A stretch of DNA of 64,000 bases from an uncultured Spirochaetales bacterium (GTDB lineage Bacteria > Spirochaetota > Spirochaetia > SPDA01 > CAZSGZ01). Below are positions 1 to 50,000 of the stretch, in pieces. The stretch spans positions 151 through 64,150 of the forward strand of contig CAYTSI010000005.1 in NCBI GenBank assembly GCA_964440465.1, written 5' to 3'. The translations under genes and the position numbers were made by a program. The notes under the pieces were generated by a model. The model ran no database searches, was not told where the DNA came from, and saw nothing but the letters and a program-made list of their open reading frames with translations. Every line of letters starts with the position of its first letter. Position 1 is the stretch's first letter.

Positions 1-736
1 CTTCGGTAATGCCGCCGTCGGTGATAAAGGCGTCGAAATCTTTTAAATCGGCGAAGTGGGTTGAATGCACCTTCCCGATTTTTGATGAATCGGCAACGAG
101 GATCGAAGATATACTCGAATCGATAATCGCCTTTTTTGTTTCCATCTCGTACTGGTTTGGGCAGGTAACGCCTAGATCTTTGCTGATTCCCCCGGCGGAG
201 ATAAAAGCTTTCGACGCCCTGGACCGCCGTATCAGGGAGATCCCCTCGGGGCTTTCAAACATCATCGTATTTTCATGAAGATATCCCCCGGCGAAGATGA
301 CGCGGCAGTTCTTCTTTTTCTGCAATTCCGCGAGGATGTTGAAAGAGTAGCAGATTACCGTCAGCGGCAGGTCCGCGGGAATGGAGCGCGCGATGTATTC
401 GGTAGTGGACCCGGCATCGATGCTGATAACGTCCTCCGCTTCGATGAGGGACGCGGCGTACCGGCCGATGGCTGCTTTTTCTTTCGTCTGTTTCGATCCC
501 GCCGTGATAAGGGAATAACTGATTTCACCCGATGGCGGTCCGCTGTTCTGGGCCGGATTTAAGACCGCGCCGCCGTGAAGGAGCTGGATGTAGTTTTGAT
601 CCTCGAGTTCCTGCAGGTCCCGCCGGATAGTCATGTGGGAAACGCCGAGCTTGTCGGCAAGTTCGTTTACCGACGCGGCATTATAAATCCGGAGAATTTT
701 CAGTATTTCATCTAACCGTTCCTTTTTATCGGCCAT
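1..736 (-). CDS. DeoR-family transcriptional regulator (HTH + sugar-phosphate sensor domain), C-terminal end truncated by window edge
   Basis: Reverse-strand translation from ATG at 736: MADKKERLDEILKILRIYNAASVNELADKLGVSHMTIRRDLQELE... then DeoR C-terminal motifs (ISIDAGSTT, ILVADSSKIGK). Not in ORF track because it runs off the window. Divergent from BMC operon. Confidence 0.8.
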   Translation of the reverse strand, partial: MADKKERLDEILKILRIYNAASVNELADKLGVSHMTIRRDLQELEDQNYIQLLHGGAVLNPAQNSGPPSGEISYSLITAGSKQTKEKAAIGRYAASLIEAEDVISIDAGSTTEYIARSIPADLPLTVICYSFNILAELQKKKNCRVIFAGGYLHENTMMFESPEGISLIRRSRASKAFISAGGISKDLGVTCPNQYEMETKKAIIDSSISSILVADSSKIGKVHSTHFADLKDFDAFITDGGITE

Positions 737-751
737 TTCCCCCGCCTTTAC

Positions 752-781
752 TTGACAAAAATGTATTATGGAATGTAAAAT
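752..781 (+). promoter_or_regulatory. Candidate sigma70-like promoter for BMC operon (TTGACA-18 nt-TAAAAT)
   Basis: ttgaca at 752-757, taaaat at 776-781, in AT-rich divergent intergenic region upstream of first shell gene. Confidence 0.3.
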
Positions 782-792
782 AACTATCAATA

Positions 793-829
793 TATGTTAA
801 CAAAATACCATCGTTATGTTAAAATTATA
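793..829. promoter_or_regulatory. Direct repeats TATGTTAA(C/A)AA(A/T)ATA spaced 22 bp; candidate operator (DeoR-type regulators bind direct repeats)
   Basis: tatgttaacaaaata (793-807) and tatgttaaaattata (815-829) between divergent deoR and BMC operon. Confidence 0.2.
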
Positions 830-860
830 ACGTAAAACCAAGAAAAAGAAAAGGGAAGGG

Positions 861-1508
861 ATGAAAATTATGAATAATATTGATTTACGGACCTATATCT
901 ACTTAGATTCACTGCAGCCGCAGATGGCATCGTATATATCCACCATTTCCCGGGGATATTTTCCGGTGGCAGGTCAGGCGTGTATGGTCGTGGAGATCTC
1001 GCCGGGTATCGAGATCAACCGGCTGACGGACATCGCTTTAAAAGCGACGAACGTACGGCCTGGAATACAAATCGTCGAGCGGCTGTTCGGGCTCTTAGAG
1101 CTCCATTCCGACAGTCAGGCCGACGCGCGGCAGTCGGGGGAGTCGATCCTGAAAGAGCTCGACTTAACCGAAGCGGACAGGATGAAGCCGACGGTACTGA
1201 CCAGTCAGCTGATAAAAAACGTGGACGACCATCACGCTCAGCTTATCAATAAAGTGCGCTACGGCAACATGATCCTCCGGGGGGACACCCTCTATGTACT
1301 GGAGCTGCAGCCGGCGGGATATGCCTATTACGCCGCGAACGAGGCGGAAAAGGCCTCGCATATAAATATTATCAACGTGCAGGGCTACGGCAGTTACGGC
1401 CGTATTTATATAGCGGGACCGGAAGCGGAAGTTCTGGTCAGCCAGCAGATTGTTGAATCCCGCCTTTTGTCGTTAAGCGGCAGGGAAGCGGGCGGTAAAA
1501 AAGAATAA
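861..1508 (+). CDS. BMC shell protein, tandem permuted BMC-T (PduB/EutL-like)
   Basis: 215 aa, two-domain; C-terminal half aligns to EutL permuted BMC domain (GDtlYvLelqPagYayyAaneaeKAshi...RIYIAGPEAEV vs EutL GDpmaYLvapPleatYgidAalKSAdvq...fLTGSQAA). GGAAGGG RBS. First gene of shell operon. Confidence 0.55.
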   Translation: MKIMNNIDLRTYIYLDSLQPQMASYISTISRGYFPVAGQACMVVEISPGIEINRLTDIALKATNVRPGIQIVERLFGLLELHSDSQADARQSGESILKELDLTEADRMKPTVLTSQLIKNVDDHHAQLINKVRYGNMILRGDTLYVLELQPAGYAYYAANEAEKASHINIINVQGYGSYGRIYIAGPEAEVLVSQQIVESRLLSLSGREAGGKKE

Positions 1509-1536
1509 CTAAAAGAATAACTAAAAGAATAACTAG
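1501..1536 (+). repeat. 12-bp tandem repeat AAGAATAACTAA x3 giving three in-frame TAA stops between BMC-T and BMC-H
   Basis: aagaataactaa aagaataactaa aagaataactag; first TAA is the stop of the 861..1508 ORF, followed by AGAGGAG RBS of next gene. Confidence 0.6.
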
Positions 1537-1547
1537 AGGAGAAAAAA

Positions 1548-1856
1548 ATGGCAGAGGTATTTGAAAACGCATTGGGAATGATCGAAACAAAGAGCTTCGC
1601 CGCGATGGTTGAAGCATCGGACGCCATGGTCAAGGCGGCAAGGGTTGAACTGACGAACTGGGTCAACACAGGCGGCGGTTATGTAACATCCATCGTCCGG
1701 GGCGATGTCGCAGCGGTACGGGCGGCCTTAGACGCGGGCGGCCGGGCGGCTGAAAAAGTCGGTGAACTGATCAGCGTTCATATTATTCCCCGTCCCCATG
1801 ACAATGTGGACAGCGCGCTTCCGTTGGGACGGACACCGCAGGGCGGAAAGAAATAG
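1548..1856 (+). CDS. BMC-H hexameric shell protein (PduA/EutM family)
   Basis: ALGMIETKSFAAMVEASDAMVKAARVEL...GGGYVTSIVRGDVAAVRAALDAG...GELISVHIIPRPH is the canonical BMC-domain signature. Confidence 0.9.
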   Translation: MAEVFENALGMIETKSFAAMVEASDAMVKAARVELTNWVNTGGGYVTSIVRGDVAAVRAALDAGGRAAEKVGELISVHIIPRPHDNVDSALPLGRTPQGGKK

Positions 1857-1860
1857 GTAG

Positions 1861-2160
1861 ATGGTACTCGCGAAAGTAGTCGGAACGGTTGTAGCTACCC
1901 GAAAAGAGCCGAAGATCGAAGGGATAAAATTCCTGCTGATAGAAAAACTGGACCCGGCAACCATGAAGGGAAAAAAAGACTTTCTCGTGGCCATGGACAG
2001 TGTCGGCGCCGGTCCCGGAGAGGTTGTCTTTTACGTGTCCGGAAGTTCGTCGAGAATGACCGCGACGACGGAGGGCAAACCGAGCGACGCGACCATAACG
2101 GCGATCGTGGACGTAATCGAAATGGACGGGAAGACCGTTTATCACAAGGACAGGCCTTAA
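1861..2160 (+). CDS. BMC-P pentameric vertex protein (EutN/PduN/CcmL family) paralog 1
   Basis: [15 protein letters not shown]...KFLLI....[23 protein letters not shown] motif pattern of EutN/CcmL fold. Confidence 0.85.
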
Positions 2161-2163
2161 GCG

Positions 2164-2451
2164 ATGATTTTTGCACAAACTGTGGGAACGGTGGTGAGCA
2201 CCGCCCGAAGCGATGAGATAGAAGGGGCGAAATTCCTTTTAGTGCGGGAATGCAGCTACAAAGGAGAACTTTCTGACAATTACATGATCGCCCTCGACGC
2301 GGTGCAGACCGGCCCGGGAGAGATGGTCCTCATTGCCCAAGGCAGTTCCTGCCGTCAGACGGAAAACACCTTCCAGAAGCCGGTGGATGCCCTGATTGTG
2401 GGAATCGTCGATTCCATAGACGAGGGAGGGGACCTTGTCTTTAGAAAGTAA
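2164..2451 (+). CDS. BMC-P pentameric vertex protein paralog 2
   Basis: MIFAQTVGTVVSTARS...KFLLV...ALDAVQTGPGEMVLIAQGSSCR. Confidence 0.85.
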   Translation: MIFAQTVGTVVSTARSDEIEGAKFLLVRECSYKGELSDNYMIALDAVQTGPGEMVLIAQGSSCRQTENTFQKPVDALIVGIVDSIDEGGDLVFRK

Positions 2452-3790
2452 GACCGCTGTCCGTCTCGCGGAGGCGGTCCGGGAGGCGGGTATCGTCGGC
2501 GCCGGCGGCGCCGGCTTCCCCACCCATAAAAAGCTCGGCGGGACCTGCCGCACGGTAATTGCCAACGGAGCCGAGTGTGAACCCCTTCTGCAGAGCGACA
2601 AATACATTATGGAAACGGAGGCGGAGAAAATCGCCGCCGCCCTCGAGCTTGCGGTGAATGAACTGCGGGCGGAAGAGGGGATTATCGCGGTAAAGGAGAA
2701 GAACAGCCGGGCTGTGGAGCGGCTCGAAGCAGCGGCGGCATCAAGGGTTGCTCTGTCCCTCTATCACCTTGAAAACTTCTATCCAGCGGGGGACGAGCAT
2801 GTGTTAGTCCATGAGATAACCGGAAAGGTAGTGCCCGAGGGGGGTATCCCGATTGCCGTGGGTGTTGTTGTCCTGAATGTGGAAACGCTGTTGAACATCT
2901 GCAACGCGGTATATGAATCGGCCCCGGTCACCCTGCGCACCGTTACCTGTACGGGAGAGGTGAAGACGCCGAAGGTGCTGCGGGTTCCGGTCGGTACGGC
3001 CATGCGGGACGTAATTCATGAGTGCGGGGGTGCTCTGGTGGAAGAACCCGCTATAATCATCGGCGGACCGATGATGGGAAAGGTCACCACCGATGTAGAT
3101 ACGCCGGTTGATAAACTGACCGGCGGAATTATCGTTTTGCCGAGGGACCACGATTGCATTCAACGGAAAACACGGCCGTTAGAAGTGCAGGTGCGGCTCT
3201 CGCGGAGCGCCTGCTGTCAGTGCGTACTGTGCAGCGAGCTCTGTCCCCGGGAGATGCTCGGGCATAATCTGTATCCGCACTTAATTATGCGGCAGATCAA
3301 TTACGGTCTTGATTTGCCGGAAGAAGCGCTGGCAGCGGCGGCGCTCTGCTGTGAATGCGGAGTGTGCGAGGTGTTCGCGTGTCCTATGGGGCTTTCCCCC
3401 TCCTTTATCAACGGAATTATCAAACAGCGGTTTGCCGAGGGGGGGTACAAGCCGGAGTTCCCCGACAGGGAGCCTAAGCCGCATGAGATGCGGGAATACC
3501 GCAAGGTGCCGGCACAGCGGATAATAGGCCGTTTGCGGCTTAACCGCTACGACGAGCCGATGTATGACCGGGGAGGCGCCGTTACACCGGAACGGGTTGA
3601 ATTGCCGCTGCGGCAGCACATCGGGGCGCCGGCGGTGCCGGTGGTTTCCCCCGGGGCAGCGGTGAAACGGGGAGACTTAATCGGGGAAATTCCCGAAGGG
3701 AGCTTAGGGGCACGGGTGCACGCCTCGGTTACGGGGACCGTTACACTGGTGGAGGAAAGCCGGATACTTATTACGGCATCAGGGGCATAA
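2435..3790 (+). CDS. PduS-like / RnfC-like flavoprotein with two 4Fe-4S clusters (BMC-associated oxidoreductase)
   Basis: 451 aa; GAGGAGFPTHKK nucleotide-binding motif; CCQCVLCSELCP and CCECGVCEVFACP ferredoxin motifs; C-terminal RnfC-type barrel-sandwich domain. Same length and domain content as Salmonella PduS (from memory). Confidence 0.75.
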   Translation: MSLESKTAVRLAEAVREAGIVGAGGAGFPTHKKLGGTCRTVIANGAECEPLLQSDKYIMETEAEKIAAALELAVNELRAEEGIIAVKEKNSRAVERLEAAAASRVALSLYHLENFYPAGDEHVLVHEITGKVVPEGGIPIAVGVVVLNVETLLNICNAVYESAPVTLRTVTCTGEVKTPKVLRVPVGTAMRDVIHECGGALVEEPAIIIGGPMMGKVTTDVDTPVDKLTGGIIVLPRDHDCIQRKTRPLEVQVRLSRSACCQCVLCSELCPREMLGHNLYPHLIMRQINYGLDLPEEALAAAALCCECGVCEVFACPMGLSPSFINGIIKQRFAEGGYKPEFPDREPKPHEMREYRKVPAQRIIGRLRLNRYDEPMYDRGGAVTPERVELPLRQHIGAPAVPVVSPGAAVKRGDLIGEIPEGSLGARVHASVTGTVTLVEESRILITASGA

Positions 3791-3793
3791 CAT

Positions 3794-4345
3794 ATGGAAT
3801 ACAGCGTAATCGGAGTACTTGAATTTTCGGCAACGGCGGCGGGCATTCTGGCCTTAGACAGCATGGTGAAGGCCGCGCCGGTGAAAATTATCGACGCGAA
3901 AACGATTTGTCCCGGCAAGTTCTATATTATCGTTACCGGAGACGTTGCCTCGGTTGATGCCGCGCTGACGGCGGGCAAAAAAGCGGGCGAGGGGTACTTG
4001 ATCGACGAGCTCTTTATTACCAACCTGCAGGAGCAGGTAATTCCGGCCATTTTAGGAACGGTGGAAACGACGAAGTGGGAATCTTTAGGCGTTATCGAAT
4101 CGTTTTCCATTGTGTCGAGTATCGTCGCGGGGGATTTGGCGGCGAAAGCGGCGGCGGTGGAGCTGCCTGAAATCAGGCTTGCTACGGGAATGGCGGGTAA
4201 ATCGTATGTAAAGATGATCGGGACGGTGCATGAGGTGGAGGTCTCCATGAAGGCGGCGAAAGAGTATGTGGGAAAGCAGGGCCTGTTATGTAAGGACGTT
4301 ATTATTCCCCACGCGCACCCGGAAATGAAGCCGTTTATTTTATAG
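3794..4345 (+). CDS. BMC-T tandem shell protein, PduT-like (possible Fe-S binding pore Cys in CPGK)
   Basis: 183 aa, two BMC domains (GVLEFSATAAGILALDSMVKAA...; SLGVIESFSIVSSIVAGDLAAKAAAVEL...); size/organisation as PduT. Confidence 0.75.
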   Translation: MEYSVIGVLEFSATAAGILALDSMVKAAPVKIIDAKTICPGKFYIIVTGDVASVDAALTAGKKAGEGYLIDELFITNLQEQVIPAILGTVETTKWESLGVIESFSIVSSIVAGDLAAKAAAVELPEIRLATGMAGKSYVKMIGTVHEVEVSMKAAKEYVGKQGLLCKDVIIPHAHPEMKPFIL

Positions 4346-4369
4346 GCACGGCGGAGGTAGGATACAGAT

Positions 4370-5815
4370 ATGCAGATAGATGAAAAAACGATACGGACGG
4401 TTGTCGAAGAGGTGTTAAAAGAGGTGAGCGCGGCGGCGGTGTCGTCCGCCTCGCCGCCCCGGACCCCTTCCCCGGCAGCCTCCTCTACATATCAGGGCTC
4501 ATTCAGTACCATGGACGCAGCCGTGCGCGCGGCGCATCAGGCGCATCTGGATTTAATGAACACGACGCTGGAAATACGGAGAAAAATGATCGATGCCATG
4601 CGGGAGACCATATGGTCCAATCTTTTTGTCCTGTCAAAAAAAGCGGTGGAGGAGACCGGCTTCGGCCGCACCGACGACAAGGTGAAGAAAAACCTTCTCG
4701 CGGCGAAGATGACACCCGGTGTGGAGGATTTAACGCCGACATCGTATACGGATGACCACGGACTTACCCTGACCGAACTCGCACCCTACGGCGTTATCGG
4801 GGCGATTGCTCCGAGTACGAACCCGACGGAGACGATTATCAGCAATGCCATTGGAATGGTAGCAGGCGGAAACACGGCGGTGTTTGGTCCCCACCCGGCC
4901 GCGAAGGAAGTTTCGAAATATACCATCTGCTTGTTAAACACGGCCATTCAGAAAGCCGGCGGACCGGCAAATGTTCTTACAACGGTGGACGAACCGACCA
5001 TCGAGGCCGCCCAGACGATGATGGACCATCCTCTCGTTTCGCTCTTAGTCGTGACCGGCGGCCCGGGAGTAGTAAAAGAGGCGATGAAACGGGCGAAAAA
5101 GGTCATTGCCGCGGGACCGGGGAACCCGCCGGTGGTGGTGGATGAAACCGCGGACATCGTGAAGGCCGGGAAAGATATCGTCGCGGGCGCGGGTTTGGAC
5201 AACAACATCATCTGTATTGACGAGAAAGAAGTCCTGGCGGTGGACTCTATTGCCGATCAGCTGAAGGCGGAAATGAAGAAAAACGGCGCCTTTGAACTGG
5301 ACCGGCAGCAGGCGGAGGCCCTGACGAAAATCGTCATTTCCGATCCCGGACGGCCGGGGCATGAAGGAATGGCGAATAAAAAATACGTGGGAAAAAACGC
5401 GTCCGTATTGGCGGACCTCATCGGCCTGAAGGTCCCCGAAGATACGCGCATCCTCATTGCCGAAGTCGACCGCGACCATCCGATGGTATGGACGGAACAG
5501 CTGATGCCCTTTATTCCGCTGGTGCGGATGAAGAGCGCCGATGAGGCGATCGATTTTGCCGTAGAATGCGAACACGGGTTTCGGCACACGGCAAGCATGC
5601 ATTCGAAAAACATCGAGCGGCTCTCAAGGATGGCGAAAGTCATGAACTGTTCCCTCTTTGTAAAAAACGGTTCGAATTTTAACGGCATGGCCTTCGGCGG
5701 CGCGGGCTACACCTCCTTTACCATTGCCAGTCCCACCGGCGACGGCTTTACCCGGGCGAGGACCTTTACCCGGGAACGGCGGTGTTCGCTCATTGATTAT
5801 TTTCGGATTGTGTAG
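4370..5815 (+). CDS. CoA-acylating aldehyde dehydrogenase (PduP/EutE family) with N-terminal encapsulation-peptide-like helix and P/S-rich linker
   Basis: 481 aa; ALDH fold motifs (VVTGGPGVVKEAMKRAKKVIAAGPGNPPVVVDETAD, NNIICIDEKEV); N-term MQIDEKTIRTVVEEVLKEV followed by AAAVSSASPPRTPSPAASS linker. Confidence 0.85.
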   Translation: MQIDEKTIRTVVEEVLKEVSAAAVSSASPPRTPSPAASSTYQGSFSTMDAAVRAAHQAHLDLMNTTLEIRRKMIDAMRETIWSNLFVLSKKAVEETGFGRTDDKVKKNLLAAKMTPGVEDLTPTSYTDDHGLTLTELAPYGVIGAIAPSTNPTETIISNAIGMVAGGNTAVFGPHPAAKEVSKYTICLLNTAIQKAGGPANVLTTVDEPTIEAAQTMMDHPLVSLLVVTGGPGVVKEAMKRAKKVIAAGPGNPPVVVDETADIVKAGKDIVAGAGLDNNIICIDEKEVLAVDSIADQLKAEMKKNGAFELDRQQAEALTKIVISDPGRPGHEGMANKKYVGKNASVLADLIGLKVPEDTRILIAEVDRDHPMVWTEQLMPFIPLVRMKSADEAIDFAVECEHGFRHTASMHSKNIERLSRMAKVMNCSLFVKNGSNFNGMAFGGAGYTSFTIASPTGDGFTRARTFTRERRCSLIDYFRIV

Positions 5816-5840
5816 GTTAAGGAAAATAGGAAGTGATGGA

Positions 5841-6113
5841 ATGAAATTAGGGAAAGTAATCGGAACGGTGGTGAGTACACAAAAGGTGGAGTCCTTCGAG
5901 GGGGTAAAGCTTCTTTTAGTACAGCCGTTAGATGAAAATTACGACGAGAAAGGCGGACCCTTAGCGGCGTGTGATACCGTTCAGGCGGGAGTTGGAGACA
6001 TTGTCCTTTATGAAGGCGGCCGGGAAGCCGCCCTGACGCTGGAAAACTGGTACAATCCGTCGGACGCGGCGGTAATGGCTATTGTCGACAGTACAAACCT
6101 GGAGGCAACCTAA
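5841..6113 (+). CDS. BMC-P pentameric vertex protein paralog 3
   Basis: MKLGKVIGTVVSTQKVESFEGVKLLLVQPL...CDTVQAGVGDIVLYEGGREA; start chosen at ATG 5841 (track ORF 5724 overlaps ALDH). Confidence 0.85.
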   Translation: MKLGKVIGTVVSTQKVESFEGVKLLLVQPLDENYDEKGGPLAACDTVQAGVGDIVLYEGGREAALTLENWYNPSDAAVMAIVDSTNLEAT

Positions 6114-6388
6114 TGCTTGTGGCTAAAGTAATCGGAACGGTTGTCGCCACGCGGAAGCATCCCGTTTTACAGGGGTATAAGCTGTTAATTGTGCAGCCGA
6201 AGGGGCCTGACGGAACGGATGCCGGCGGGATCGAGATTGCCCTCGATACGGTACAGGCAGGGACCGGCGAAACGGTGCTGCTGTTGACGGAGGGCAACTC
6301 TTCGAGGATGATTATCGGCGACGACATGGCCCCGGTACGTGCGGTGGTGGTCGGCATTATCGATGAGGTACAGTACGATGCAGTATAA
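6113..6388 (+). CDS. BMC-P pentameric vertex protein paralog 4
   Basis: [29 protein letters not shown]...ALDTVQAGTGETVLLLTEGNSSR. Confidence 0.85.
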   Translation: MLVAKVIGTVVATRKHPVLQGYKLLIVQPKGPDGTDAGGIEIALDTVQAGTGETVLLLTEGNSSRMIIGDDMAPVRAVVVGIIDEVQYDAV

Positions 6389-6929
6389 AAGTGATTCATC
6401 CATTGTACAAAATATCGTTTCCACGCTTCACACGGCCGCGGACCGGCCGCTTCCGGTGGAGAATACCGCGAACCAGGAAGACAAGGTCCTTCGGGTTGCC
6501 CTCGGGGCGGACCACGGCGGCTTCGAGGCGAAGGAGGCCCTGCGGGAGTATCTGAAGTCCTTAGGTTACCGTGTTACCGACGTCGGGACCGACAGTACCG
6601 AAAGCGTCGACTATCCCGATTTCGCGGTAAAGGTGGCGAAAAAAGTGGCCTCCGGGGAATGCGAGCGGGGAATTATGATCGACGGCGCGGGAATCGGATC
6701 GACGATGGTATGCAACAAGGTGCGGGGCATCCGCGCGGCGCTGTGCTACGATGTGAAAACAATCAGCAACAGCAGGGTGCACAATAACGCGAACGTGCTG
6801 TGCTTAGGCGGCCCCCTGCACGGCAGAGAGGAAATTTTTGAAATGGCAAAGCTGTGGCTAACCACGCGATTCGAGGGCGGCAGACACTGGCCGCGGATTA
6901 ATAAAATGATGGCAGTTGAACGAGGATAA
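6378..6929 (+). CDS. rpiB: Ribose-5-phosphate isomerase B (RpiB/LacAB family) with ~35-aa N-terminal extension (candidate encapsulation peptide)
   Basis: Core LRVALGADHGGFEAKEALREYLKSLGYRVTDVG...GIMIDGAGIGSTMVCNKVRGIRAALCYD...NANVLCLGG is RpiB; N-terminal MQYKSDSSIVQNIVSTLHTAADRPLPVENTANQEDK precedes the core. Start ambiguous (6339/6378). Confidence 0.8.
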   Translation: MQYKSDSSIVQNIVSTLHTAADRPLPVENTANQEDKVLRVALGADHGGFEAKEALREYLKSLGYRVTDVGTDSTESVDYPDFAVKVAKKVASGECERGIMIDGAGIGSTMVCNKVRGIRAALCYDVKTISNSRVHNNANVLCLGGPLHGREEIFEMAKLWLTTRFEGGRHWPRINKMMAVERG

Positions 6930-6941
6930 GAGGATAGACAG

Positions 6942-7820
6942 ATGGAGCAGAAAGATTTAGTAGAAAAATTGACGAAAGAGGTTATCGCGCGGCTTACGCA
7001 GGAAGGCAGCGGCGTTACAGGCGGCGCGCCTGCAGGCGGCAGCAGGACAACGGCCTCCGGCGGCGTCGGCGGCAATATGGGCGGCGGCCGGTCATCGGGC
7101 GCCGTACAGGAAGGCGGCTCGGCTCAGGCGGCCGGTTCCGGGGAGCTCCGTCCCTCCGACCTCAATAAATATATCGACCACACTCTGCTCAAACCGGAGG
7201 CGACGAAAGAGCAGATCGACAAGCTCTGCGATGAGGCGAAGGAATACTCTTTTTATTCGGTATGCGTCAACTCGAGCTGGGTGGAATACTGCGCGAAAAA
7301 ACTCCGCGGAAGCGGAGTCAAAATCAGTGCCGTAGTGGGGTTCCCCTTAGGCGCCATGGAAGGCCGTGCGAAGGGTTATGAAACAAGACACGTCGTCGAG
7401 GCGGGTGCCGATGAAATAGATATGGTGATGAACGTGGGCGCCCTGAAATCGGGAGACACGAAAAAGGTTGAAGAAGACATCCGCTGGGTCCGCCGGTCCA
7501 CCCGGCAGAAGACGGTTGTAAAAGTAATTATCGAAGCGGCCCTGCTGACCGATGACGAGAAGGTGCTCGCCTGTCAGATTTCGAAAAACGCCGGCGCCGA
7601 TTTCGTAAAAACGTCCACCGGGTTTGCAAAAGGCGGCGCCACCGCCGAAGATGTCGCCCTGATGCGGCGCACCGTCGGTCCGAAGACGGGCGTTAAAGCT
7701 GCCGGGGGGATCCGCTCCTTCGAAGATGCTGTGAAGATGATCAATGCCGGCGCGACTCGCTTAGGCACCAGTTCCAGCGTAGAGATTGTTACGGGGCAAA
7801 AGAGCACGTCGGCGTACTAA
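6942..7820 (+). CDS. deoC: Deoxyribose-phosphate aldolase (DERA) with N-terminal amphipathic helix plus ~50-aa Gly/Ser-rich linker (encapsulation peptide)
   Basis: Core YIDHTLLKPEATKEQI...SVCVNSSWV...VVGFPLG...DEIDMVMNVGALKSG...VKVIIEAALLTDDEKV...GADFVKTSTGF is DeoC; N-term MEQKDLVEKLTKEVIARLTQEG then SGVTGGAPAGGSRTTASGGVGGNMGGGRSSGAVQEGGSAQAAGSG. Confidence 0.85.
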   Translation: MEQKDLVEKLTKEVIARLTQEGSGVTGGAPAGGSRTTASGGVGGNMGGGRSSGAVQEGGSAQAAGSGELRPSDLNKYIDHTLLKPEATKEQIDKLCDEAKEYSFYSVCVNSSWVEYCAKKLRGSGVKISAVVGFPLGAMEGRAKGYETRHVVEAGADEIDMVMNVGALKSGDTKKVEEDIRWVRRSTRQKTVVKVIIEAALLTDDEKVLACQISKNAGADFVKTSTGFAKGGATAEDVALMRRTVGPKTGVKAAGGIRSFEDAVKMINAGATRLGTSSSVEIVTGQKSTSAY

Positions 7821-7907: not shown

Positions 7908-8276
7908 ATGGGGACGTTTCATATCAGCTGTAAAGTAGAAAACCATATTGACCGCGGGAAAAATACTACAGTTAAAAACCTATTAGTAGACACCGGAAGC
8001 GGATTTACCTGGCTCCCCGCCTCGGAACTGGAGAACATCGATGTTGCCCGTGAGAAAAAAGATCTGCCTTTTATTATGGCAAACGGTCAAAGGATTACCA
8101 GGGACGCCGGCTTCGCGATCATCCGTGTAGAAGACCATTTCACCATTGATGAGGTTGTATTCGCGGAGGAAGGGGACTTGCTGCTGTTAGGCGCCCGCAC
8201 TTTAGAAGGACTGAACCTCCGGGTCGATTCGGTCCGGAAGAAACTCGTGGCCGCCGGACCGCTCCCGGCCGCGTAG
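7908..8276 (+). CDS. Retropepsin-like (clan AA) aspartic peptidase domain protein
   Basis: LLVDTGSGFTWLP contains the D-T/S-G catalytic motif in a ~120-aa single-domain protein typical of bacterial retropepsin-like proteases. Confidence 0.55.
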   Translation: MGTFHISCKVENHIDRGKNTTVKNLLVDTGSGFTWLPASELENIDVAREKKDLPFIMANGQRITRDAGFAIIRVEDHFTIDEVVFAEEGDLLLLGARTLEGLNLRVDSVRKKLVAAGPLPAA

Positions 8277-8533: not shown

Positions 8534-9682
8534 ATGAATAGAGAACGAAAAAAAAGGCGGACACTAAAAAAGAGCGGGCCGATGATGTCCCGCCTGTACG
8601 GAGACACCGGCGTTAACGTTTCCGCGTTAGGTTTCGGCGGGATGCGGTTTGAGAAACCGGACGATATCGAGCATTCCGCCGAGACGGTGTTCCACGCCTT
8701 CGAGCGGGGGATTACCTATTTCGATACGGCGCCGGGGTATTTCGACGGTAAGTCGGAGGAGGCCGTCGGTACGGCGGTAAACGAGATGAAGAAAACCGGC
8801 AGGCCTTTTTATATATCCACGAAATCAAACAAGGCGGACGGTGCCGTGGTCCGGAAAGAGCTGGAAGAAAGCCTGAAGCGGCTGAATCTCGACTGTATCG
8901 ATTTTTATAACTGCTGGTACGTACTGACATTAGAGGATTGGGAAAAACGGAAAAACGGCGGGGCAGTGGAAGCAATTCTAAAGGCGCGGGACGAGGGGCT
9001 TGTCCGCTTTCCGGTATTTTCCACCCACCTTCCGGGAGACGCGGTACGTACGGTCATTGAAGAGGGATATTTCCGCGGCGTTACCCTCGGCTATTCGGCC
9101 ATCAATTTTCCCTACCGGGAAGAGGGGATACGGGCAGCCGGAGAGAACAATCTCGGTGTTGTCGTTATGAACCCCTTAGGGGGAGGAACAATTGTAAACA
9201 ATGCCGATGCCTTTCAATTTATCAAACGGGACAGCAAACAGACCGTTTTAGAGGCGGCCCTTCATTTTCTCTGGGCCCACGATGAAATTACGGTCGCGTT
9301 AGTAGGATGCAGGAACAAGTCCGATGTGGACGATGCCGCTGCCGCCGCGGCATCGTACGTACCCTATTCGGACGAAGATATCTCTAAAATAAAGAAGAAC
9401 ATTACCCGGGACTTCAACCAGCTGTGTACAAGCTGTACCTACTGTGATGTTTGTCCCGAAGACATCCCTGTCTGGAAGTTTGTGGAAACTGCAAACCATG
9501 TTATTTTAGGCTCTTCCGCGTCACTGTCCGGACGACTGAAATACTACTGGGGGGCTGATCCGACGGCCATGGAGCGGTGTATCCGGTGCGGGCAGTGTGA
9601 AAGTGCCTGCACCCAGCATATACCGATTATGGAACGGTTTGAGATGCTGAAAACAGCATTGACGGAGGAACCTACAAAGTAA
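8534..9682 (+). CDS. Aldo/keto reductase fused to C-terminal 2x[4Fe-4S] ferredoxin domain
   Basis: AKR N-terminal region (GFGGMRF..., DTAPGY) and C-terminal CTSCTYCDVCPEDIP / CIRCGQCESACTQHIP cluster motifs; GAAGGAA RBS before 8534. Confidence 0.75.
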   Translation: MNRERKKRRTLKKSGPMMSRLYGDTGVNVSALGFGGMRFEKPDDIEHSAETVFHAFERGITYFDTAPGYFDGKSEEAVGTAVNEMKKTGRPFYISTKSNKADGAVVRKELEESLKRLNLDCIDFYNCWYVLTLEDWEKRKNGGAVEAILKARDEGLVRFPVFSTHLPGDAVRTVIEEGYFRGVTLGYSAINFPYREEGIRAAGENNLGVVVMNPLGGGTIVNNADAFQFIKRDSKQTVLEAALHFLWAHDEITVALVGCRNKSDVDDAAAAAASYVPYSDEDISKIKKNITRDFNQLCTSCTYCDVCPEDIPVWKFVETANHVILGSSASLSGRLKYYWGADPTAMERCIRCGQCESACTQHIPIMERFEMLKTALTEEPTK

Positions 9683-11046: not shown

Positions 11047-12174
11047 ATGTTCCGTATGAACCGGTTTACGATGTGCGCGGCAGCCGACTTTCACCTCGGC
11101 ATGAGGTTCTCTTCCTACCCTTCTGTGCAAAAGGAGCTGATACGGGCGAGGTTTTCCGCGCTCCGGCGGGTGGTGGACCGGGCAAATGCCGAACAATGCG
11201 CTCTTCTTGTGATAGCGGGAGATTTGTTTGATCGTATCAACATCCCGGTAAAAGAAGCGGAGGAAGTGATAGAAATTCTCGGCGGATTTCAGGGTGATTG
11301 CATTGCGGTTTTACCGGGTAACCACGATTATTTCAGCGGTGCAAAGAGCGGTGTCTGGAAAACCGTTACGGAGAATGGACCGGATAACCTCCTGCTGCTG
11401 TCGGAGAAGAAAAAATACTACCTCAATGATTTCCATTTGCCGGTTGTTTTATATGCCGGCCCATGCAGTTCTCAGCACGGACGTGAAAACGCGGTATCGT
11501 GGATCGGCCCGGCGGACCGAAAGGACAGAGAATTGTTTCATATAGGGGTAGCCCACGGCAGCATTGAGGGGATTTCCCCCGACGTAACCAAGCAGTATTT
11601 CCCGATGAACAGGAAGCAGCTGGAGTCCGCCGGTCTCGATTTGTGGATTATCGGGCACACCCATATACCCTTCCCGGAGCGGGAGGAAACGGTATCGCCT
11701 TTTATTATACCCGGCACACCCGAACCGGACGGTTTTGATTCCGGCGGGGACGGAGCTGCTTGGATTATTTCGGTAAATGATAACAAGGCGGTACACAAGA
11801 AGCGGTTTACTGCCGGCTCATACCGTTTTACGCGGCAGATAAAGGAAATACACTCCGCCGGGGACATTGAGGAGGCGGTCCGTGAAATGAGCGGAACGGC
11901 CGGTCCTTCCGTTCTCCTGCAGCTGAAACTGCGGGGCACTCTTGTGAAGGGCGATTTTCCCCTTTTAGGTCCGGCAATGGAAGAATTGGCACAGCGGTTT
12001 TTTTATACGGATATTGATACGGAAAGCGTGAAAACAAAGCTGACCCCCGGAGAAATCGGCAATGAATTCCGGGAAGGGACCTTTCCCTATATTCTTCTTT
12101 CCCGTCTCTCCGAGTACGGCGATACCGAGGCGCTCGAGCGGGCTTACAGGATCCTAGAGGAGATGAGGAAATGA
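11047..12174 (+). CDS. sbcD: SbcD/Mre11-like calcineurin-family metallophosphoesterase (DNA repair exonuclease, YhaO-like)
   Basis: Phosphoesterase motifs AAADFHLG, VIAGDLFD, LPGNHD, GHTH; overlaps downstream ATPase gene by 4 bp. Confidence 0.7.
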   Translation: MFRMNRFTMCAAADFHLGMRFSSYPSVQKELIRARFSALRRVVDRANAEQCALLVIAGDLFDRINIPVKEAEEVIEILGGFQGDCIAVLPGNHDYFSGAKSGVWKTVTENGPDNLLLLSEKKKYYLNDFHLPVVLYAGPCSSQHGRENAVSWIGPADRKDRELFHIGVAHGSIEGISPDVTKQYFPMNRKQLESAGLDLWIIGHTHIPFPEREETVSPFIIPGTPEPDGFDSGGDGAAWIISVNDNKAVHKKRFTAGSYRFTRQIKEIHSAGDIEEAVREMSGTAGPSVLLQLKLRGTLVKGDFPLLGPAMEELAQRFFYTDIDTESVKTKLTPGEIGNEFREGTFPYILLSRLSEYGDTEALERAYRILEEMRK

Positions 12175-14651
12175 TCATCCGGGACCTGCACATTCATACC
12201 TTCGGGGACTTTCAGGATGTCCGGCTGCAGTTTGCAGACGGGTGTAATATTGTCCTTGGTGAAAATGAAGCGGGTAAGTCAACGGTTTTCAATGTAATCG
12301 ATCATCTGCTGTTTACTCCCGTCAAGCTGACGAAGCGTGAAATGGAAAAAAGCTTGAATCGATGGTTTCCCGTTGGAGGCGGGGATACGTTGAGCGCGGA
12401 ATTATCTGCCGAACTCGGGGACAGAGCTGTTCGGTACTTCAAGTGCTGGGGCGGGAATCCGGAAGGAACAATTCGATTTTCACCGGGAGGGACCTATTCG
12501 GGCGATGATGCCCTCGCTGCGGAAACGGAAAAATTGTGGGGATACTCTCCGGAGACGGTGCGGCAGGTTTGCCTGCTGCGGCAGAGTACCCTCGCGGATA
12601 CGCTGCCTTCCTACCAGAATTCGAAGGAGGTATTGCAGTCTCTTACCGACATCCTGCAAAATTCTTTAATAGAAGGCGGCGGTATTTCCACCTCCGGTTT
12701 TATTGAAACTCTCCGGGACCGGTACAGCTTGTTTTTTTCAAGATGGGACAGAGACCGGAACTATCCGGAAAAAAACAGAGGGATTGAAAATCCATGGTCG
12801 GTAAACGTGGGTACGGTTTTGAAATGGTGGTATGAAATGAAGCGGGCCGAGTTAGAGGTCCGGCGGGTAGAGCAGCTGGAAGACTCAATATGTTTACTGC
12901 AGAGCAGCCAAAAAGAAAAAAAGAAGGAAACGGCAGCTCTCGAGTCGTTTCTTTCTGCCTTTGAGACAGTCTACAACACTGCCGGAGACAGAAAAAGCCT
13001 GGAATTGGAACTGCGGGAAATTATCGGTACGATGGAGCGGATAAAGAAAGACAGTCAATCCTGGGGACGGGGGAGGGATGGTCTTGAACAGGCGCTCCGG
13101 GAGCGGAAAGAAGGGAACGAAGAACTTGGAAAGCTCCGCGGGCGGATCGAAAGCAGGGATGAAGTAACGGCGAAACGGAAACGGTTCGAAAAATATCGTC
13201 GGCTGCTGGAGGTGAAAACAAAACTCGACGCCCTGGAGGCAAAGCTCAGAGAACAGCCGGCAATACCGGAAAAGGATTTGCAGGCACTCCGTGAATCAAG
13301 GTTGGCAATTCGGGAAAGTGAGGTGAAACTGCAGTCCGGAACACTCTTTGCACAGCTGACCGCGAAGAAAAATATCAGTTTTTCCTATACTCCCGGATTG
13401 GGCACTGAAAAGCGGCGTGACCTTATGGCAGGGAATTCGCTTGAAATAACGGCGGAAGGGAAAATTCGGCTGAGCCACGAAGACTGGGAGCTGGATGTTT
13501 ATTCGGGAAACGAAGATTACGAAACCGTCAAAAAGGAGCTGGAGGCAGGCAAAAAAGAGTTTAACGCTCTCTGTGAGAAGTACGGTGTTGTTTCCGTCGA
13601 GGAAGGAGAAGCACAGCGGAAGGTTTATACTGATCTGGAAGGGGAAACGGCACGGGCGCGGAAACAATTTTCCGAGGAACGCGGAGAGGACTCTTTTGAA
13701 GCCCTGAAGAAGGAAGTCGAAAGTTTTGGGGCCCTTCCTGAGGAAACCGACAGTACCGAGCTGGGAAGAGAATACGGTTCTCTCAATGAACGGCTTGCCG
13801 CGCTTGAAAAAACAATACAGGAACATCGGGAACGGTTGTCGTATTTGGAAGAGACATATGGGACGGAGGAAAAGCTTCTGGACATGCTCGCGGACCTCCG
13901 CGGCCGGCAGCGGGACTTGGAGAAACAAGTGGCTGCTCTTCCGGAAATTCCTGACCCCTTCGAAACGGCGGAAGAATTTCTTGAGGCATACAGGGAAAAA
14001 CAAAGAAAAAGGGAGACGCTCCGTCAGGAAATATTTGAGTTAGATAAGGCGGCCGCCCTTGCGGTAAAAGACCTCCCGGACATCTCCCTCGAGGAGCTCG
14101 AAGCGGACGCTGAAGCCGCGCGGCGGCGTTTTCAATCCGCGCTTTCGGAGGGGGAGACAATCGGCCGGATTCTCGAGACAGCGCTGCGGATCCAAAAAGA
14201 AATTCAGGAGAACCCCTATACCGCCTTTATGGAGGCGGCGGAAGCAAACCTTAAAAAAATGACCGGGCAGAGGCTGCAGTATAAAAGCAGATCAGGCGGG
14301 GGGGACGGTCAGGCAGCGGCCCCTTTTCACGGTGATGTTAGAAACAGCCGGGGAGAAATTCTGGCGTACGGACAGCTTTCAGGCGGAACGAAAGACGCGG
14401 TTTCTCTAGCCGTCCGGCTGGCAATGGCGGAGTATTATCTGAAAAATAAAGCAGGGTTTCTCCTCTTTGATGATCCCCTAGTGGAAATGGACCCGCGGCG
14501 CCAGAAGGCCGCCGCCGAACTGCTTTCCGAAACCGCCCGGCGCTACCAGTCGATAATCTTTACCTGTCATCCCCACATGCGCGATTTATTCCCGAATGCC
14601 AATGTAATTGAGCTGCATCGGGACGGGGAACGGAGGCGTGTTAAATTTTAA
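12171..14651 (+). CDS. sbcC: SbcC/Rad50-like ABC ATPase with long coiled coil (YhaN-like)
   Basis: Walker A GENEAGKST near N-terminus, ~600 aa coiled-coil, C-terminal LSGGTKDAVSLA signature and LLFDDPLVEMD Walker B/D-loop. Confidence 0.75.
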   Translation: MIIRDLHIHTFGDFQDVRLQFADGCNIVLGENEAGKSTVFNVIDHLLFTPVKLTKREMEKSLNRWFPVGGGDTLSAELSAELGDRAVRYFKCWGGNPEGTIRFSPGGTYSGDDALAAETEKLWGYSPETVRQVCLLRQSTLADTLPSYQNSKEVLQSLTDILQNSLIEGGGISTSGFIETLRDRYSLFFSRWDRDRNYPEKNRGIENPWSVNVGTVLKWWYEMKRAELEVRRVEQLEDSICLLQSSQKEKKKETAALESFLSAFETVYNTAGDRKSLELELREIIGTMERIKKDSQSWGRGRDGLEQALRERKEGNEELGKLRGRIESRDEVTAKRKRFEKYRRLLEVKTKLDALEAKLREQPAIPEKDLQALRESRLAIRESEVKLQSGTLFAQLTAKKNISFSYTPGLGTEKRRDLMAGNSLEITAEGKIRLSHEDWELDVYSGNEDYETVKKELEAGKKEFNALCEKYGVVSVEEGEAQRKVYTDLEGETARARKQFSEERGEDSFEALKKEVESFGALPEETDSTELGREYGSLNERLAALEKTIQEHRERLSYLEETYGTEEKLLDMLADLRGRQRDLEKQVAALPEIPDPFETAEEFLEAYREKQRKRETLRQEIFELDKAAALAVKDLPDISLEELEADAEAARRRFQSALSEGETIGRILETALRIQKEIQENPYTAFMEAAEANLKKMTGQRLQYKSRSGGGDGQAAAPFHGDVRNSRGEILAYGQLSGGTKDAVSLAVRLAMAEYYLKNKAGFLLFDDPLVEMDPRRQKAAAELLSETARRYQSIIFTCHPHMRDLFPNANVIELHRDGERRRVKF

Positions 14652-15836: not shown

Positions 15837-16343
15837 TCAGCGTAACTTCATCCAAACCCGCCGCAGGAAATCATTAGGCGGCCGCTCTAATATGTCCAGC
15901 TGTCCCTTATAGATCAAACTCATGCCGCTGTATTTATAGTCTGTCGCGTATTGGACCATTTTGGCGCGAACTGGGTTATTGGCTATATAAACAAATGTGG
16001 CAAGATATTGCAGGAAACTGTGAATTATTTTGCTTTTAAACCGCTCGTTCCATACATGGCCGGTTAGCCCAAATGTTTTATTATACTGCATCGCGAAAAC
16101 GCTTAAAACCCATTGCATAATGGCCGATAAGCTCTCATTATTCAGCGGTTTTATGATGAAATGGTAATGGTTTCCCATTATACAGAAGTTTTTGATAGTG
16201 AAGCGGTATTTTTTTTTTGCCCTTCTGATGACTTCCATAAACATTTCTTGTATTTCCGGTGTTTTGAATATTACTTCTTTGCGGTTCACTCTGGAAACTA
16301 CGTGATAACTTGCCCCATACTGTAATTGCCTTGGTTTTCTCAT
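15837..16343 (-). CDS. IS200/IS605-family HUH Y1 transposase homolog, possibly a REP-associated tyrosine transposase (RAYT)
   Basis: 168 aa; HUH motif GNHYHFII; YHVVSRVNRKEVIF N-terminal motif; VWNERFKSKIIHSF...YIANNPVRAKMV C-terminal similarity to IS200 TnpA/RAYT. No obvious IS ends identified. Confidence 0.6.
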   Translation of the reverse strand: MRKPRQLQYGASYHVVSRVNRKEVIFKTPEIQEMFMEVIRRAKKKYRFTIKNFCIMGNHYHFIIKPLNNESLSAIMQWVLSVFAMQYNKTFGLTGHVWNERFKSKIIHSFLQYLATFVYIANNPVRAKMVQYATDYKYSGMSLIYKGQLDILERPPNDFLRRVWMKLR

Positions 16344-47039: not shown

Positions 47040-50000
47040 ATGAAACGGACCGTAATGCTGATTGCCCTTTTACTAGGCAGCATACTGCTTGTTTTTACCG
47101 GCTGCACCAGGGAGGAAGCCCCCGGGGCGAAACCTGCTACGGAGGAAAACACGGAGGAGATGAGTGAAAGCCAAAAAATCCAGCGGCAGCTGTATCAAGA
47201 CGCGGCAATTAACGAGGACCTAGCCTCCTATGACATTACCTACTACGAGCCGGACTCGATACAAACGGTAGCGGCGCCGGTGAAGGAATCGGACGAACCG
47301 TTTCAAATTGTCGATTACGGTCCCGTCGAGGAGCTTCCCCCGGAGGTCGTTTATCCGTCGATGTATGTCGTTTTCTCCCAGCCGGTGGTGCCTCTGCGGC
47401 AGCTGGGAGAACCTATGCGTTCGTCTGACATTATGTCAATTGACCCGCCCATACAAGGTACCTTCCGATGGTACGGGACCAGGCTTTTGAGTTTTGACGC
47501 CGATGAAAAGGCCCTTCCCCAGCGGCGTTACACCGTTTCAATTTCGGATACCGCGCGGTCATTAGGCGGCAAAGAGCTGACGGGAGAGAAATCCTTCAGT
47601 TTTCATACCGAATATCTTTCGATTCGGGACTTTTTTACCGGTACAGCGGAGGGGGACTACAGCTTAGATGATGTGCCCCCAGACGAAGCAAAAACAATCC
47701 ACATCGTATTTTCCCACAAGGTCAACCTCAATGTTATCAAAAATTATCTGTCCGTCGAAGCGGGAGGCCGCGGCTATAATTTTACCATTGCCCGTCCCGA
47801 CGACCCGGAAAATCGGCTGTCCGAAGAAATCAAGGAACGGACGGCAGTCCTGCATGTGGAAGGTCTGTTCCCTGAAGATACCGATGTTACCGTAACAGTA
47901 CGGAAAGGGGCGCGGAGTGAAGCCGATTTTATCGGTACGCCGGTGAACATAACACGGAGTTTTCATACCCTCAGGCCCTTCCGGTTTGTGGATTACGATA
48001 CCTGTTCCTGGTCCTTTCCCCGGAGCAGGCAGGGCGAAGCAAATCCGGTATATCTAAAGTTCAGTCATTCCGTAAAAGCCGAGGACCTCACGGGTAAGGT
48101 CCGCACCAATCCGGCAATGGAAATAACGGAAGAGAATGTCGAGGTTTACCGGGACCGGGTCCGGATCAACAATCTGCCCGTTGCCCCCGAGTCGGTATAC
48201 ACTCTGTTTCTGGACGCCGGTATTACCGACGTGTACGGGAGAAAACTACAAAGGAGCGAACAGGTCCGAGTCGAGGTCCCTCCGGCGGAACGCTACGCCT
48301 ATTTTCCGAATACCGGGCCCCGGATGCTGGAGGCCGCGTTCCCGAAGCGGATTATGTGGGAGCACCAGAATGTTTTCGAAGGCCTGTGGAAGGCGGATAC
48401 CGTTTCCGACCCCTACGGGACGTTCAGTCATGAGGAGCTCAGGCCCTACAATTTCGGAGAAATCGAGAGGAATAAACGGTATTTTGAGGTCTACAATTTC
48501 AAGGACTATTTGAACAGTGAAGGATACGGCTGGGTCGGCTTCTCCTGGAACTTCGGGAAGAGGAACAACGACGGCACCATGCCGACATGGACGAAACGGG
48601 ACCTTCGGCTGCAGGTTACCGATTTGGGCCTTACGGTCCGCCACGGTTACAATAAAATTATTACCCTTGTTACTTCCCTCGCGACAGGCGAGGCGGTAGA
48701 GGGTGCCGAGGTAAGCATTACGCGGAAACAGGCCGTTAAAAAGAGCACCGAAACGGATGCCGACGGCTTAGCGGTATTCGAGCTGGAAGAAGGGGAATAC
48801 TTTGAATATTTCGGGGTCCCCGGACGGACCTATGAAAATGAACTGCGGATACGGGTCAAGTACGGAAACGACAAAATAGAATTTAAACCGAATTACAGTC
48901 ACGATACGTGGCGTTCCAATATATACAACACCGCGGCGCCGACACAGATCGGGACCCCGAATATGGTCACCTATCTGTTTACCGACCGCAAACTGTACAA
49001 GCCGGGGGAAACGGTCACCTTCAGAGGTATCGACCGGAACCAGCAGTACGGTAAATACACGCCTTTTTCCGGCGGGTACGATATCGCCGTTCGTGAGTCC
49101 CGGTACCGCGGAAGAGAAATAACCCGTTTCCGCGGTGAAACAACCGGTTCCGGCGGGTTGTACGGGAGTTTTACCCTGCCGGAGGACGCGGAACCGGGGT
49201 GGTATGAAATTGCTTACAGCCGGGACGAAAAAACGGTCCGGGAGCTGTTCCAGGTGGCCCACTTCCGGCGGCTTCTCTTTTCCGTCGATATGTCGAGTCC
49301 CGACATTACCCATTATCAGGGGGACACGGTGAGTTTTACCGTTGCCTCGGAATATCTTGCAGGCGGGGCTCTCAGCCGGGGAAATTACGAGGTCTATTGG
49401 TCGAAACGTCCGGTTACCTACACGCCGCCGGGAGATGACTGGAAGGATTACCGGTTCGGACCGGAAGGGTACGACAGCAGACACAGCCTGGAAACTGCCG
49501 AAGGCAGCCTGCCGCCGACGGGTACTATCAATGTGAAGCAGAAAACATCACCCGAGGGCATCGAGGGGAGGGCCTATGTTTATGAAGCAGAAGCGCGAAT
49601 CAGCGACGTCAGCAATCAGCTTGTAGCAAAGCGGGAGGGTGTAACGGTCCATCCCGCCGCTTTTTACATCGGCGCCCGGGTGAAGGACGCTGCCGGCTCC
49701 TGGTATACCTTTGTGGAAAAGGGAAAGGAGATGGAGTGTGAGGTCCGGCTGGTTACACCGGAAGGCGGCCTTGTAAAAGACGGAGAAAAAATCAGCCTTA
49801 CAGGTGAATTGTATAAAATCGAGTGGAAACTGGCCCAGCAGCAGGGGGTGTATGATACCATCAACTCCCGCTGGGAGCGGGTGGAGACGAAAATCGCCGA
49901 CGAGGAAATAACCCTAAGCAGCGGAAAGGGGACGGCGCGGTTTACCCCCGGGGAGAGCGGTTCGTATTATATCAAATTTACCGCCGAGGACGCCATGGAG

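Follow-up and report, generated by a model that had tools for sequence, protein, structure and literature searches.

The window, by which we mean the whole stretch of 64,000 nucleotides analysed here (contig CAYTSI010000005.1 of assembly GCA_964440465.1, positions 151 to 64,150), derives from an uncultured Spirochaetales bacterium and carries at its start a bacterial microcompartment (BMC) locus with four genes encoding BMC-P, the pentameric shell protein, and a single gene encoding BMC-H, the hexameric shell protein. We are highly confident that bases 1-7820 of the window constitute a complete and ordinary sugar-phosphate-utilisation (SPU) microcompartment operon of the SPU2 type from a spirochete. 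Its shell genes (four BMC-P, one BMC-H, one BMC-Ts and one BMC-Tdp) are those published for SPU2, and the pattern is already known. The initial annotation of this DNA had regarded the proportion of four BMC-P to one BMC-H as unusual, a view that does not hold for this type, as four BMC-P together with one or two BMC-H defines SPU2 and four BMC-P were found in every complete relative. Its recognition of one single-domain BMC-H was correct, but its tally of shell genes was incomplete, as the genes for BMC-Tdp (861-1508) and BMC-Ts (3794-4345) had been overlooked; with these two assigned, the tally is four pentamer genes versus three facet-tile genes, instead of four versus one. Gene copy number, moreover, does not set the stoichiometry of shell proteins.

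The SPU2 type has been described from 53 loci, mostly of Bacteroidetes and Spirochaetes, with several candidate phyla in addition (Sutter et al. 2021, Nat Commun 12:3809, Supplementary Data 2). Its only enzymes are AldDh, pfam01791 and pfam02502, a PTAC being usually absent, and its shell comprises one or two BMC-H, a BMC-P triplet plus an extra green BMC-P, a CcmP-like Tdp and a Ts with a pore Cys; PduS is present in approximately a quarter of the loci, and the AldDH, like some of the DeoC and RpiB proteins, bears an N-terminal encapsulation peptide (Sutter 2021). The signature set of a pfam01791 DeoC, a pfam02502 RpiB and an AldDH is present in the window, and none of the genes between 861 and 7820 encodes a PTAC. 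Every SPU type possesses at least a BMC-P triplet, in which the grey-clade and orange-clade members are always adjacent, and triplets are common elsewhere, being found in the PVM, HO, ACI, MIC3/4/7 and MUF2 types as well as in all SPU types (Sutter 2021). A baseline of one BMC-P and several BMC-H, against which the locus had initially been judged, suits classical loci of the PDU and EUT types; the averages per locus are 1.7 BMC-P and 2.2 BMC-H (Sutter 2021). Nor is BMC-H always the commonest shell gene, as Haliangium ochraceum encodes one BMC-H, three BMC-T and three BMC-P and forms homogeneous shells (Axen et al. 2014).

The genes of the window are arranged in a single, tightly packed operon on the + strand, extending from 861 to approximately 7820, next to a divergent DeoR-type regulator. 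The order is DeoR (divergent), BMC-Tdp, BMC-H, P1, P2, PduS, BMC-Ts, AldDH, P3, P4, RpiB and DERA, P1 to P4 denoting the four BMC-P; gaps between operon genes are at most ~40 nt, and P2/PduS, P3/P4 and P4/RpiB overlap. The signature enzyme is a DeoC/DERA-type aldolase (6942-7820, +), with PF01791 over residues 77-271, preceded by an RpiB-type sugar-phosphate isomerase (6378-6929, +; PF02502, 178 bits, residues 40-177). The aldehyde dehydrogenase, AldDH (4370-5815, +), contains PF00171 over residues 40-448; its Cys282 is invariant among 24 homologs, and database homologs are named EutE of Spirochaetales. All three enzymes are extended at the N terminus ahead of their Pfam domains (by ~40 residues in AldDH, 39 in RpiB and ~75 in DERA), and each extension opens with a helix-like stretch, after which comes a linker of low complexity, Gly-rich in DERA. 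The extension of AldDH is presumed to be an encapsulation peptide. A PduS-like flavin and Fe-S oxidoreductase (2435-3790, +) contains Complex1_51K, SLBB, Fer4_17 and RnfC_N domains, and its start overlaps the end of P2. The regulator gene occupies 1-735 on the - strand, its C-terminal end being lost at the window edge; an identical gene on locus L001 contains PF08220 HTH_DeoR and PF00455 DeoRC. Two putative sigma-70-like promoters, identified solely by their match to the consensus, lie on the + strand at 752-825, within the 125 nt that separate the divergent regulator from the operon, TTGACA-18-TAAAAT scoring 11/12 and TTAACA-17-TAAAAT with a TG extension 10/12. The same gene set recurs in two independently assembled contigs, one of a JGI metagenome and one of Logan/ENA, and as the gene order is shared as well, we reject an assembly artefact.

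The four BMC-P genes form two tandem pairs on the + strand, an upstream pair of P1 (1861-2160) and P2 (2164-2451) and a downstream pair of P3 (5841-6113) and P4 (6113-6388); in this respect, the initial coordinates (1861-2451 and 5841-6388) and family assignment were right. Each of the four proteins is 90-99 residues long, has a single PF03319 domain and spans the full EutN_CcmL profile (1-83/83), at 89.9 bits for P1, 86.4 for P2, 91.5 for P3 and 93 for P4, the cut-off being 25. Identity among the paralogs is only 33-43%, and they are therefore not recent duplicates. In a search of the PDB, the best match of all four was the H. ochraceum shell pentamer of 5V74 (96 bits for P1, 80 for P2, 62 for P3 and 62 for P4), with CcmL, EutN and GrpN structures matching as well. 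Divergence was compared with the closest relatives, loci L084 and L083, whose AldDH proteins are 79% and 86% identical to that of the window, respectively. Across the four BMC-P, non-synonymous divergence (pN 0.07-0.14) is 5-10x below synonymous divergence (pS 0.64-0.82), with pN 0.07 and pS 0.80 for P1, pN 0.10 and pS 0.77 for P3, and pN 0.14 and pS 0.82 for P4, each against a relative; raw pN/pS is given for these three, instead of dN/dS, because synonymous sites are saturated. All four BMC-P are under strong purifying selection, comparable to that on the enzymes of the same operon. The possibility raised in the initial annotation that two of the four are degenerate can be dismissed: with full-length profiles, purifying selection and positional orthologs, none of them is. 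As a separate observation, the P3 ortholog of L083 (1758-2096) ends in a 22-residue Gly-rich C-terminal tail, AAAGGDNEGRAGSGKKGAGDGGN, which the P3 of the window lacks.

The conservation of the four genes is best seen among related loci. Using AldDH alignment, 80 related loci were taken from genome assemblies and annotated with hidden Markov models built from the window proteins; the best hit among the genome assemblies surveyed has 68% identity. There are 27 complete SPU2-like loci, including the window, and all 27 encode four BMC-P, with one BMC-H in 13 and two in 14. Two of the loci, L004 and L012, both from spirochete metagenome-assembled genomes, share the exact gene order of the window, including PduS. 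When every BMC-P in the surveyed loci was scored against P1-P4, orthology by position approached 100%: the first upstream BMC-P matched P1 best and the second P2 best in 29/31 SPU2-like loci each, the first downstream BMC-P matched P3 in 28/28 and the second P4 in 27/28, and the downstream pair of loci with three BMC-P likewise matched P3 and P4 (22/22 each). These positional orthologs are found in Spirochaetes, Bacteroidales, Atribacteria, KSB3 and other groups, and mean identity is 0.47-0.64 within a positional class versus 0.31-0.47 between classes. A neighbour-joining tree of 228 BMC-P resolved three major groups, namely the upstream proteins (113/113), the P3-type (56/60) and the P4-type (55/55, a clean clade); P3 and P4 fall into separate clades, and the P1-type and P2-type are subclusters of the upstream group. 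Bootstrap values are reasonable for the major groups. Each BMC-P group also has its own conserved signature, which is present in the window proteins; the GSSAR loop of canonical pentamers, for instance, reads GrEAA in the P3 group (GGREAA in the P3 of the window) and EG.sar in the P4 group. P1-P4 are thus intact, old paralogs, each with its own position-conserved ortholog group across phyla.

The facet-tile genes agree with the SPU2 assignment. The BMC-H gene (1548-1856, +; PF00936, 98.7 bits) is the sole single-domain PF00936 gene; its edge motifs KAA (MVKAA) and PRPH are standard, its GAGGAG ribosome-binding site is the clearest in the operon, and the protein is 95% identical to its L084 ortholog, with pN 0.03 versus pS 0.68. 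The first gene of the operon (861-1508, +; 215 residues) encodes a CcmP-like BMC-Tdp, a permuted trimer of tandem BMC domains of the kind that stacks in pairs. It matches CcmP structures 4HT5 and 5LSR at E=1e-71, the H. ochraceum BMC-T of 5V74 at 6e-66 and CsoS1D at 1e-51, and the identical gene of L001 is annotated with PF27545 CsoS1D_N, whereas the Pfam BMC profile scores only 16 bits because the domains are circularly permuted. The annotated ATG at 861 abuts a GGAAGGG purine run, while the ATG at 870 is better spaced and the alignment with CcmP starts at residue 6-7, so that the true start of BMC-Tdp may be the ATG at 870. The stretch from 1499 to 1535, between the BMC-Tdp stop and the BMC-H ribosome-binding site, contains a perfect 12-nt tandem repeat, AAAAGAATAACT, in 3.1 copies. 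The third tile gene encodes a PduT-like BMC-Ts of 183 residues (3794-4345, +) with two PF00936 domains (126 bits); it matches 3NWG at E=6e-39 and PduT (3N79) at E=4e-31, its CPGK motif aligns, Cys39 is the pore cysteine, and the PduS homolog is encoded directly 5' of it. No other BMC-H, BMC-T or BMC-P was found when all shell proteins were searched with phmmer against a six-frame translation of the whole 64 kb.

The downstream pair is adjacent in itself and lies next to RpiB/DeoC, as is described for the grey/orange pair of SPU2, and P3 and P4 most likely correspond to this published pair, which accompanies aldolase-type metabolosomes. At 6111-6115 (TAATG), the stop codon of P3 and the start codon of P4 share 1 nt, and P4 in turn overlaps the start of RpiB by 11 nt (6378-6388), which extends the coupling of the pair into RpiB in the window. 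Stop/start overlap of the downstream pair occurs in 41/54 loci from many phyla (4 nt in 38 and 1 nt in 3), and the pair is therefore normally co-translated. This conserved coupling is compatible with a paired function and is no proof of one.

Several points weigh against the SPU2 interpretation set out above. Pentamer formation, vertex occupancy and the relative abundance of the four BMC-P are inferred from sequence. The count of shell genes covers the 64 kb of the window. P3/P4 are equated with the grey/orange pair on the basis of their adjacency, their position next to RpiB/DERA and the clade structure; the tree itself was built from short sequences (90 columns) with saturated distances, and support for the two upstream subclusters is moderate.

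Family assignments and conservation are what our results provide, and the mechanism proposed here for the SPU2-type compartment draws on established knowledge of the families. The single BMC-H, having the best ribosome-binding site, would tile the bulk of the facets. The CcmP-like BMC-Tdp may serve as a gated route for larger sugar phosphates, as proposed in the 2024 SPU characterisation paper, and the Cys-pore BMC-Ts together with PduS, the usual electron-transfer pair, would form an electron conduit. AldDH, RpiB and DERA would be targeted by their N-terminal extensions, the expected encapsulation peptides, and AldDH would turn acetaldehyde into acetyl-CoA inside the shell (Sutter 2021; 2024 SPU characterisation paper). 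The vertices would be capped by BMC-P pentamers. P1 is the likeliest principal cap, being the closest of the four to the H. ochraceum vertex pentamer by its score against 5V74; P2 appears to be a diverged copy from the clade of P1, and is the extra copy that separates SPU2 from triplet loci; P3 and P4, co-translated, would act as alternative vertex caps. The operon as a whole probably serves the catabolism of deoxyribose-5-phosphate derived from DNA.

A role for P3 and P4 beyond plain homopentameric capping, either in mixed pentamers or as a tether for the RpiB and DERA cargo, would account for the two genes always staying together beside those for the aldolase. The stop/start overlap in most loci and the extension of the coupling into RpiB speak for such a role, as do the substitutions by which each group alters the GSSAR loop and the greater distance of P3 and P4, compared with P1 and P2, from solved vertex pentamers. 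The literature offers further encouragement, in that only 12 pentamers are needed per shell and the BMC-P paralogs hint at an additional role (Sutter 2021; 2024 SPU characterisation paper), the reason for multiple paralogs being called unknown in the same sources and hetero-oligomerisation of BMC-P being unexplored. Specialised vertices or non-vertex roles, suggested in the initial annotation, are hypotheses that have already been stated there. Translational coupling, however, is frequent where genes of an operon are tightly packed and is no proof that the proteins form a complex, a 1:1 pair has no obvious fit to five-fold symmetry, no BMC-P has direct evidence for binding cargo, and in the shell structures of H. 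ochraceum (5V74) the vertices are occupied by one BMC-P sequence alone. On balance, we consider a special role of this kind unlikely. A more elaborate form, in which P3 and P4 would be a dedicated, co-translated module (as mixed pentamers or as two vertex classes) tied to the adjacent aldolase-type cargo, with P2 adding a further vertex class, is suggested by the frequency of the overlap, the GSSAR-loop substitutions and the constant adjacency to the RpiB/DERA genes, and we hold it to be decidedly unlikely.

The count of one hexamer gene could, alternatively, be an artefact of looking at a single locus, with satellite BMC-H genes elsewhere in the genome restoring the usual ratio. Other BMC types often possess satellite BMC-H genes (Sutter 2021), a second BMC-H is situated upstream of the Tdp gene in 14/27 SPU2-like loci, and the search for shell genes in the organism of the window was limited to 64 kb. 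Against this, the 64 kb window contains no other shell gene, the operon starts at the divergent regulator, and no satellite loci are reported for SPU2 (Sutter 2021). A BMC-H gene immediately outside the window, which had been considered initially, finds no support in L084 either, where the 5 kb beyond the regulator contain CorA, DUF179 and FecR-type proteins and no shell protein. Furthermore, the 13 complete loci with a single BMC-H have no additional shell genes in their flanks (up to 10 kb where the contig allowed). We therefore judge satellite BMC-H genes to be a very unlikely explanation, and retain the single BMC-H as an ordinary feature of an SPU2 operon. The remaining idea, that some BMC-P are recent tandem duplicates, decaying copies or pseudogenes without a function of their own, finds in its favour the two tandem pairs, an arrangement that duplication yields, and is rejected as extremely improbable by the low identity of the paralogs, their full-length PF03319 matches well over the cut-off, their positional orthologs across phyla, the 5-10x deficit of non-synonymous divergence and frames that are intact in independent assemblies.

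The DNA beyond the operon contains a number of further features. Directly 3' of DeoC lies another sigma-70-like promoter (a consensus match), and the next gene encodes a 122-residue retropepsin-like protein (7908-8276) whose Pfam aspartyl-protease matches fall below the cut-off. This is followed by an aldo/keto reductase (8534-9682) bearing a 4Fe-4S dicluster domain at its C terminus; genes of both kinds also follow DeoC in L083 (3875-4243 and 5517-6665). As the operon has neither a PTAC nor an alcohol dehydrogenase, the aldo/keto reductase might assist it in the handling of aldehydes or cofactors. Farther downstream, an SbcD-like metallophosphoesterase (375 residues) and an SbcC/Rad50-like ATPase (826 residues) are encoded by translationally coupled genes at 11047-14651, an IS200-like Y1 transposase gene is located at 15837-16343 (-; PF01797, 57 bits), and an exceptionally long open reading frame (1926 residues) occupies 47040-52820 (+).

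For annotation, our results indicate that the region should be recorded as an SPU2 metabolosome operon in a spirochete, with its 215-residue first gene relabelled from hypothetical protein to BMC-Tdp shell protein. That 12 pentamers suffice per shell, yet four ancient BMC-P paralogs are kept, is a puzzle already recognised in the field. The locus gives no new handle on this multiplicity of BMC-P; it shows once more that selection acts on all four copies and that the downstream pair is coupled across phyla.

Comparison with known systems places the operon closest to SPU2 (Sutter 2021; Axen 2014), with which it shares AldDH, RpiB and DeoC in the absence of a PTAC, a single BMC-H whose motifs are standard, four BMC-P (a triplet and one more), a BMC-Tdp resembling CcmP, a BMC-Ts that has a pore Cys and is accompanied by PduS, cargo enzymes extended at the N terminus, and a spirochete host. 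Nothing of substance differs, as the window merely belongs to the quarter or so of SPU2 loci that possess PduS and has one BMC-H instead of two. The shell of H. ochraceum resembles that of the window in having one BMC-H and several BMC-T, and forms regular icosahedral shells; it differs in having three BMC-P, two of which are encoded in a satellite locus with an aldolase, and in its enzyme set. SPU3-type and other triplet loci (PVM, ACI, MIC4, MUF2) likewise have an adjacent BMC-P pair and a third BMC-P beside BMC-H, but their single upstream BMC-P is not accompanied by a P2-type copy, and their order is Tdp, H, P, Ald, Ts, P, P. The CsoS4A and CsoS4B proteins of the alpha-carboxysome are likewise a pair of BMC-P paralogs that invariably share an operon, but belong to a different BMC-P clade and to an anabolic organelle, and are distant matches to P1 (E=1e-4 to 1e-5).

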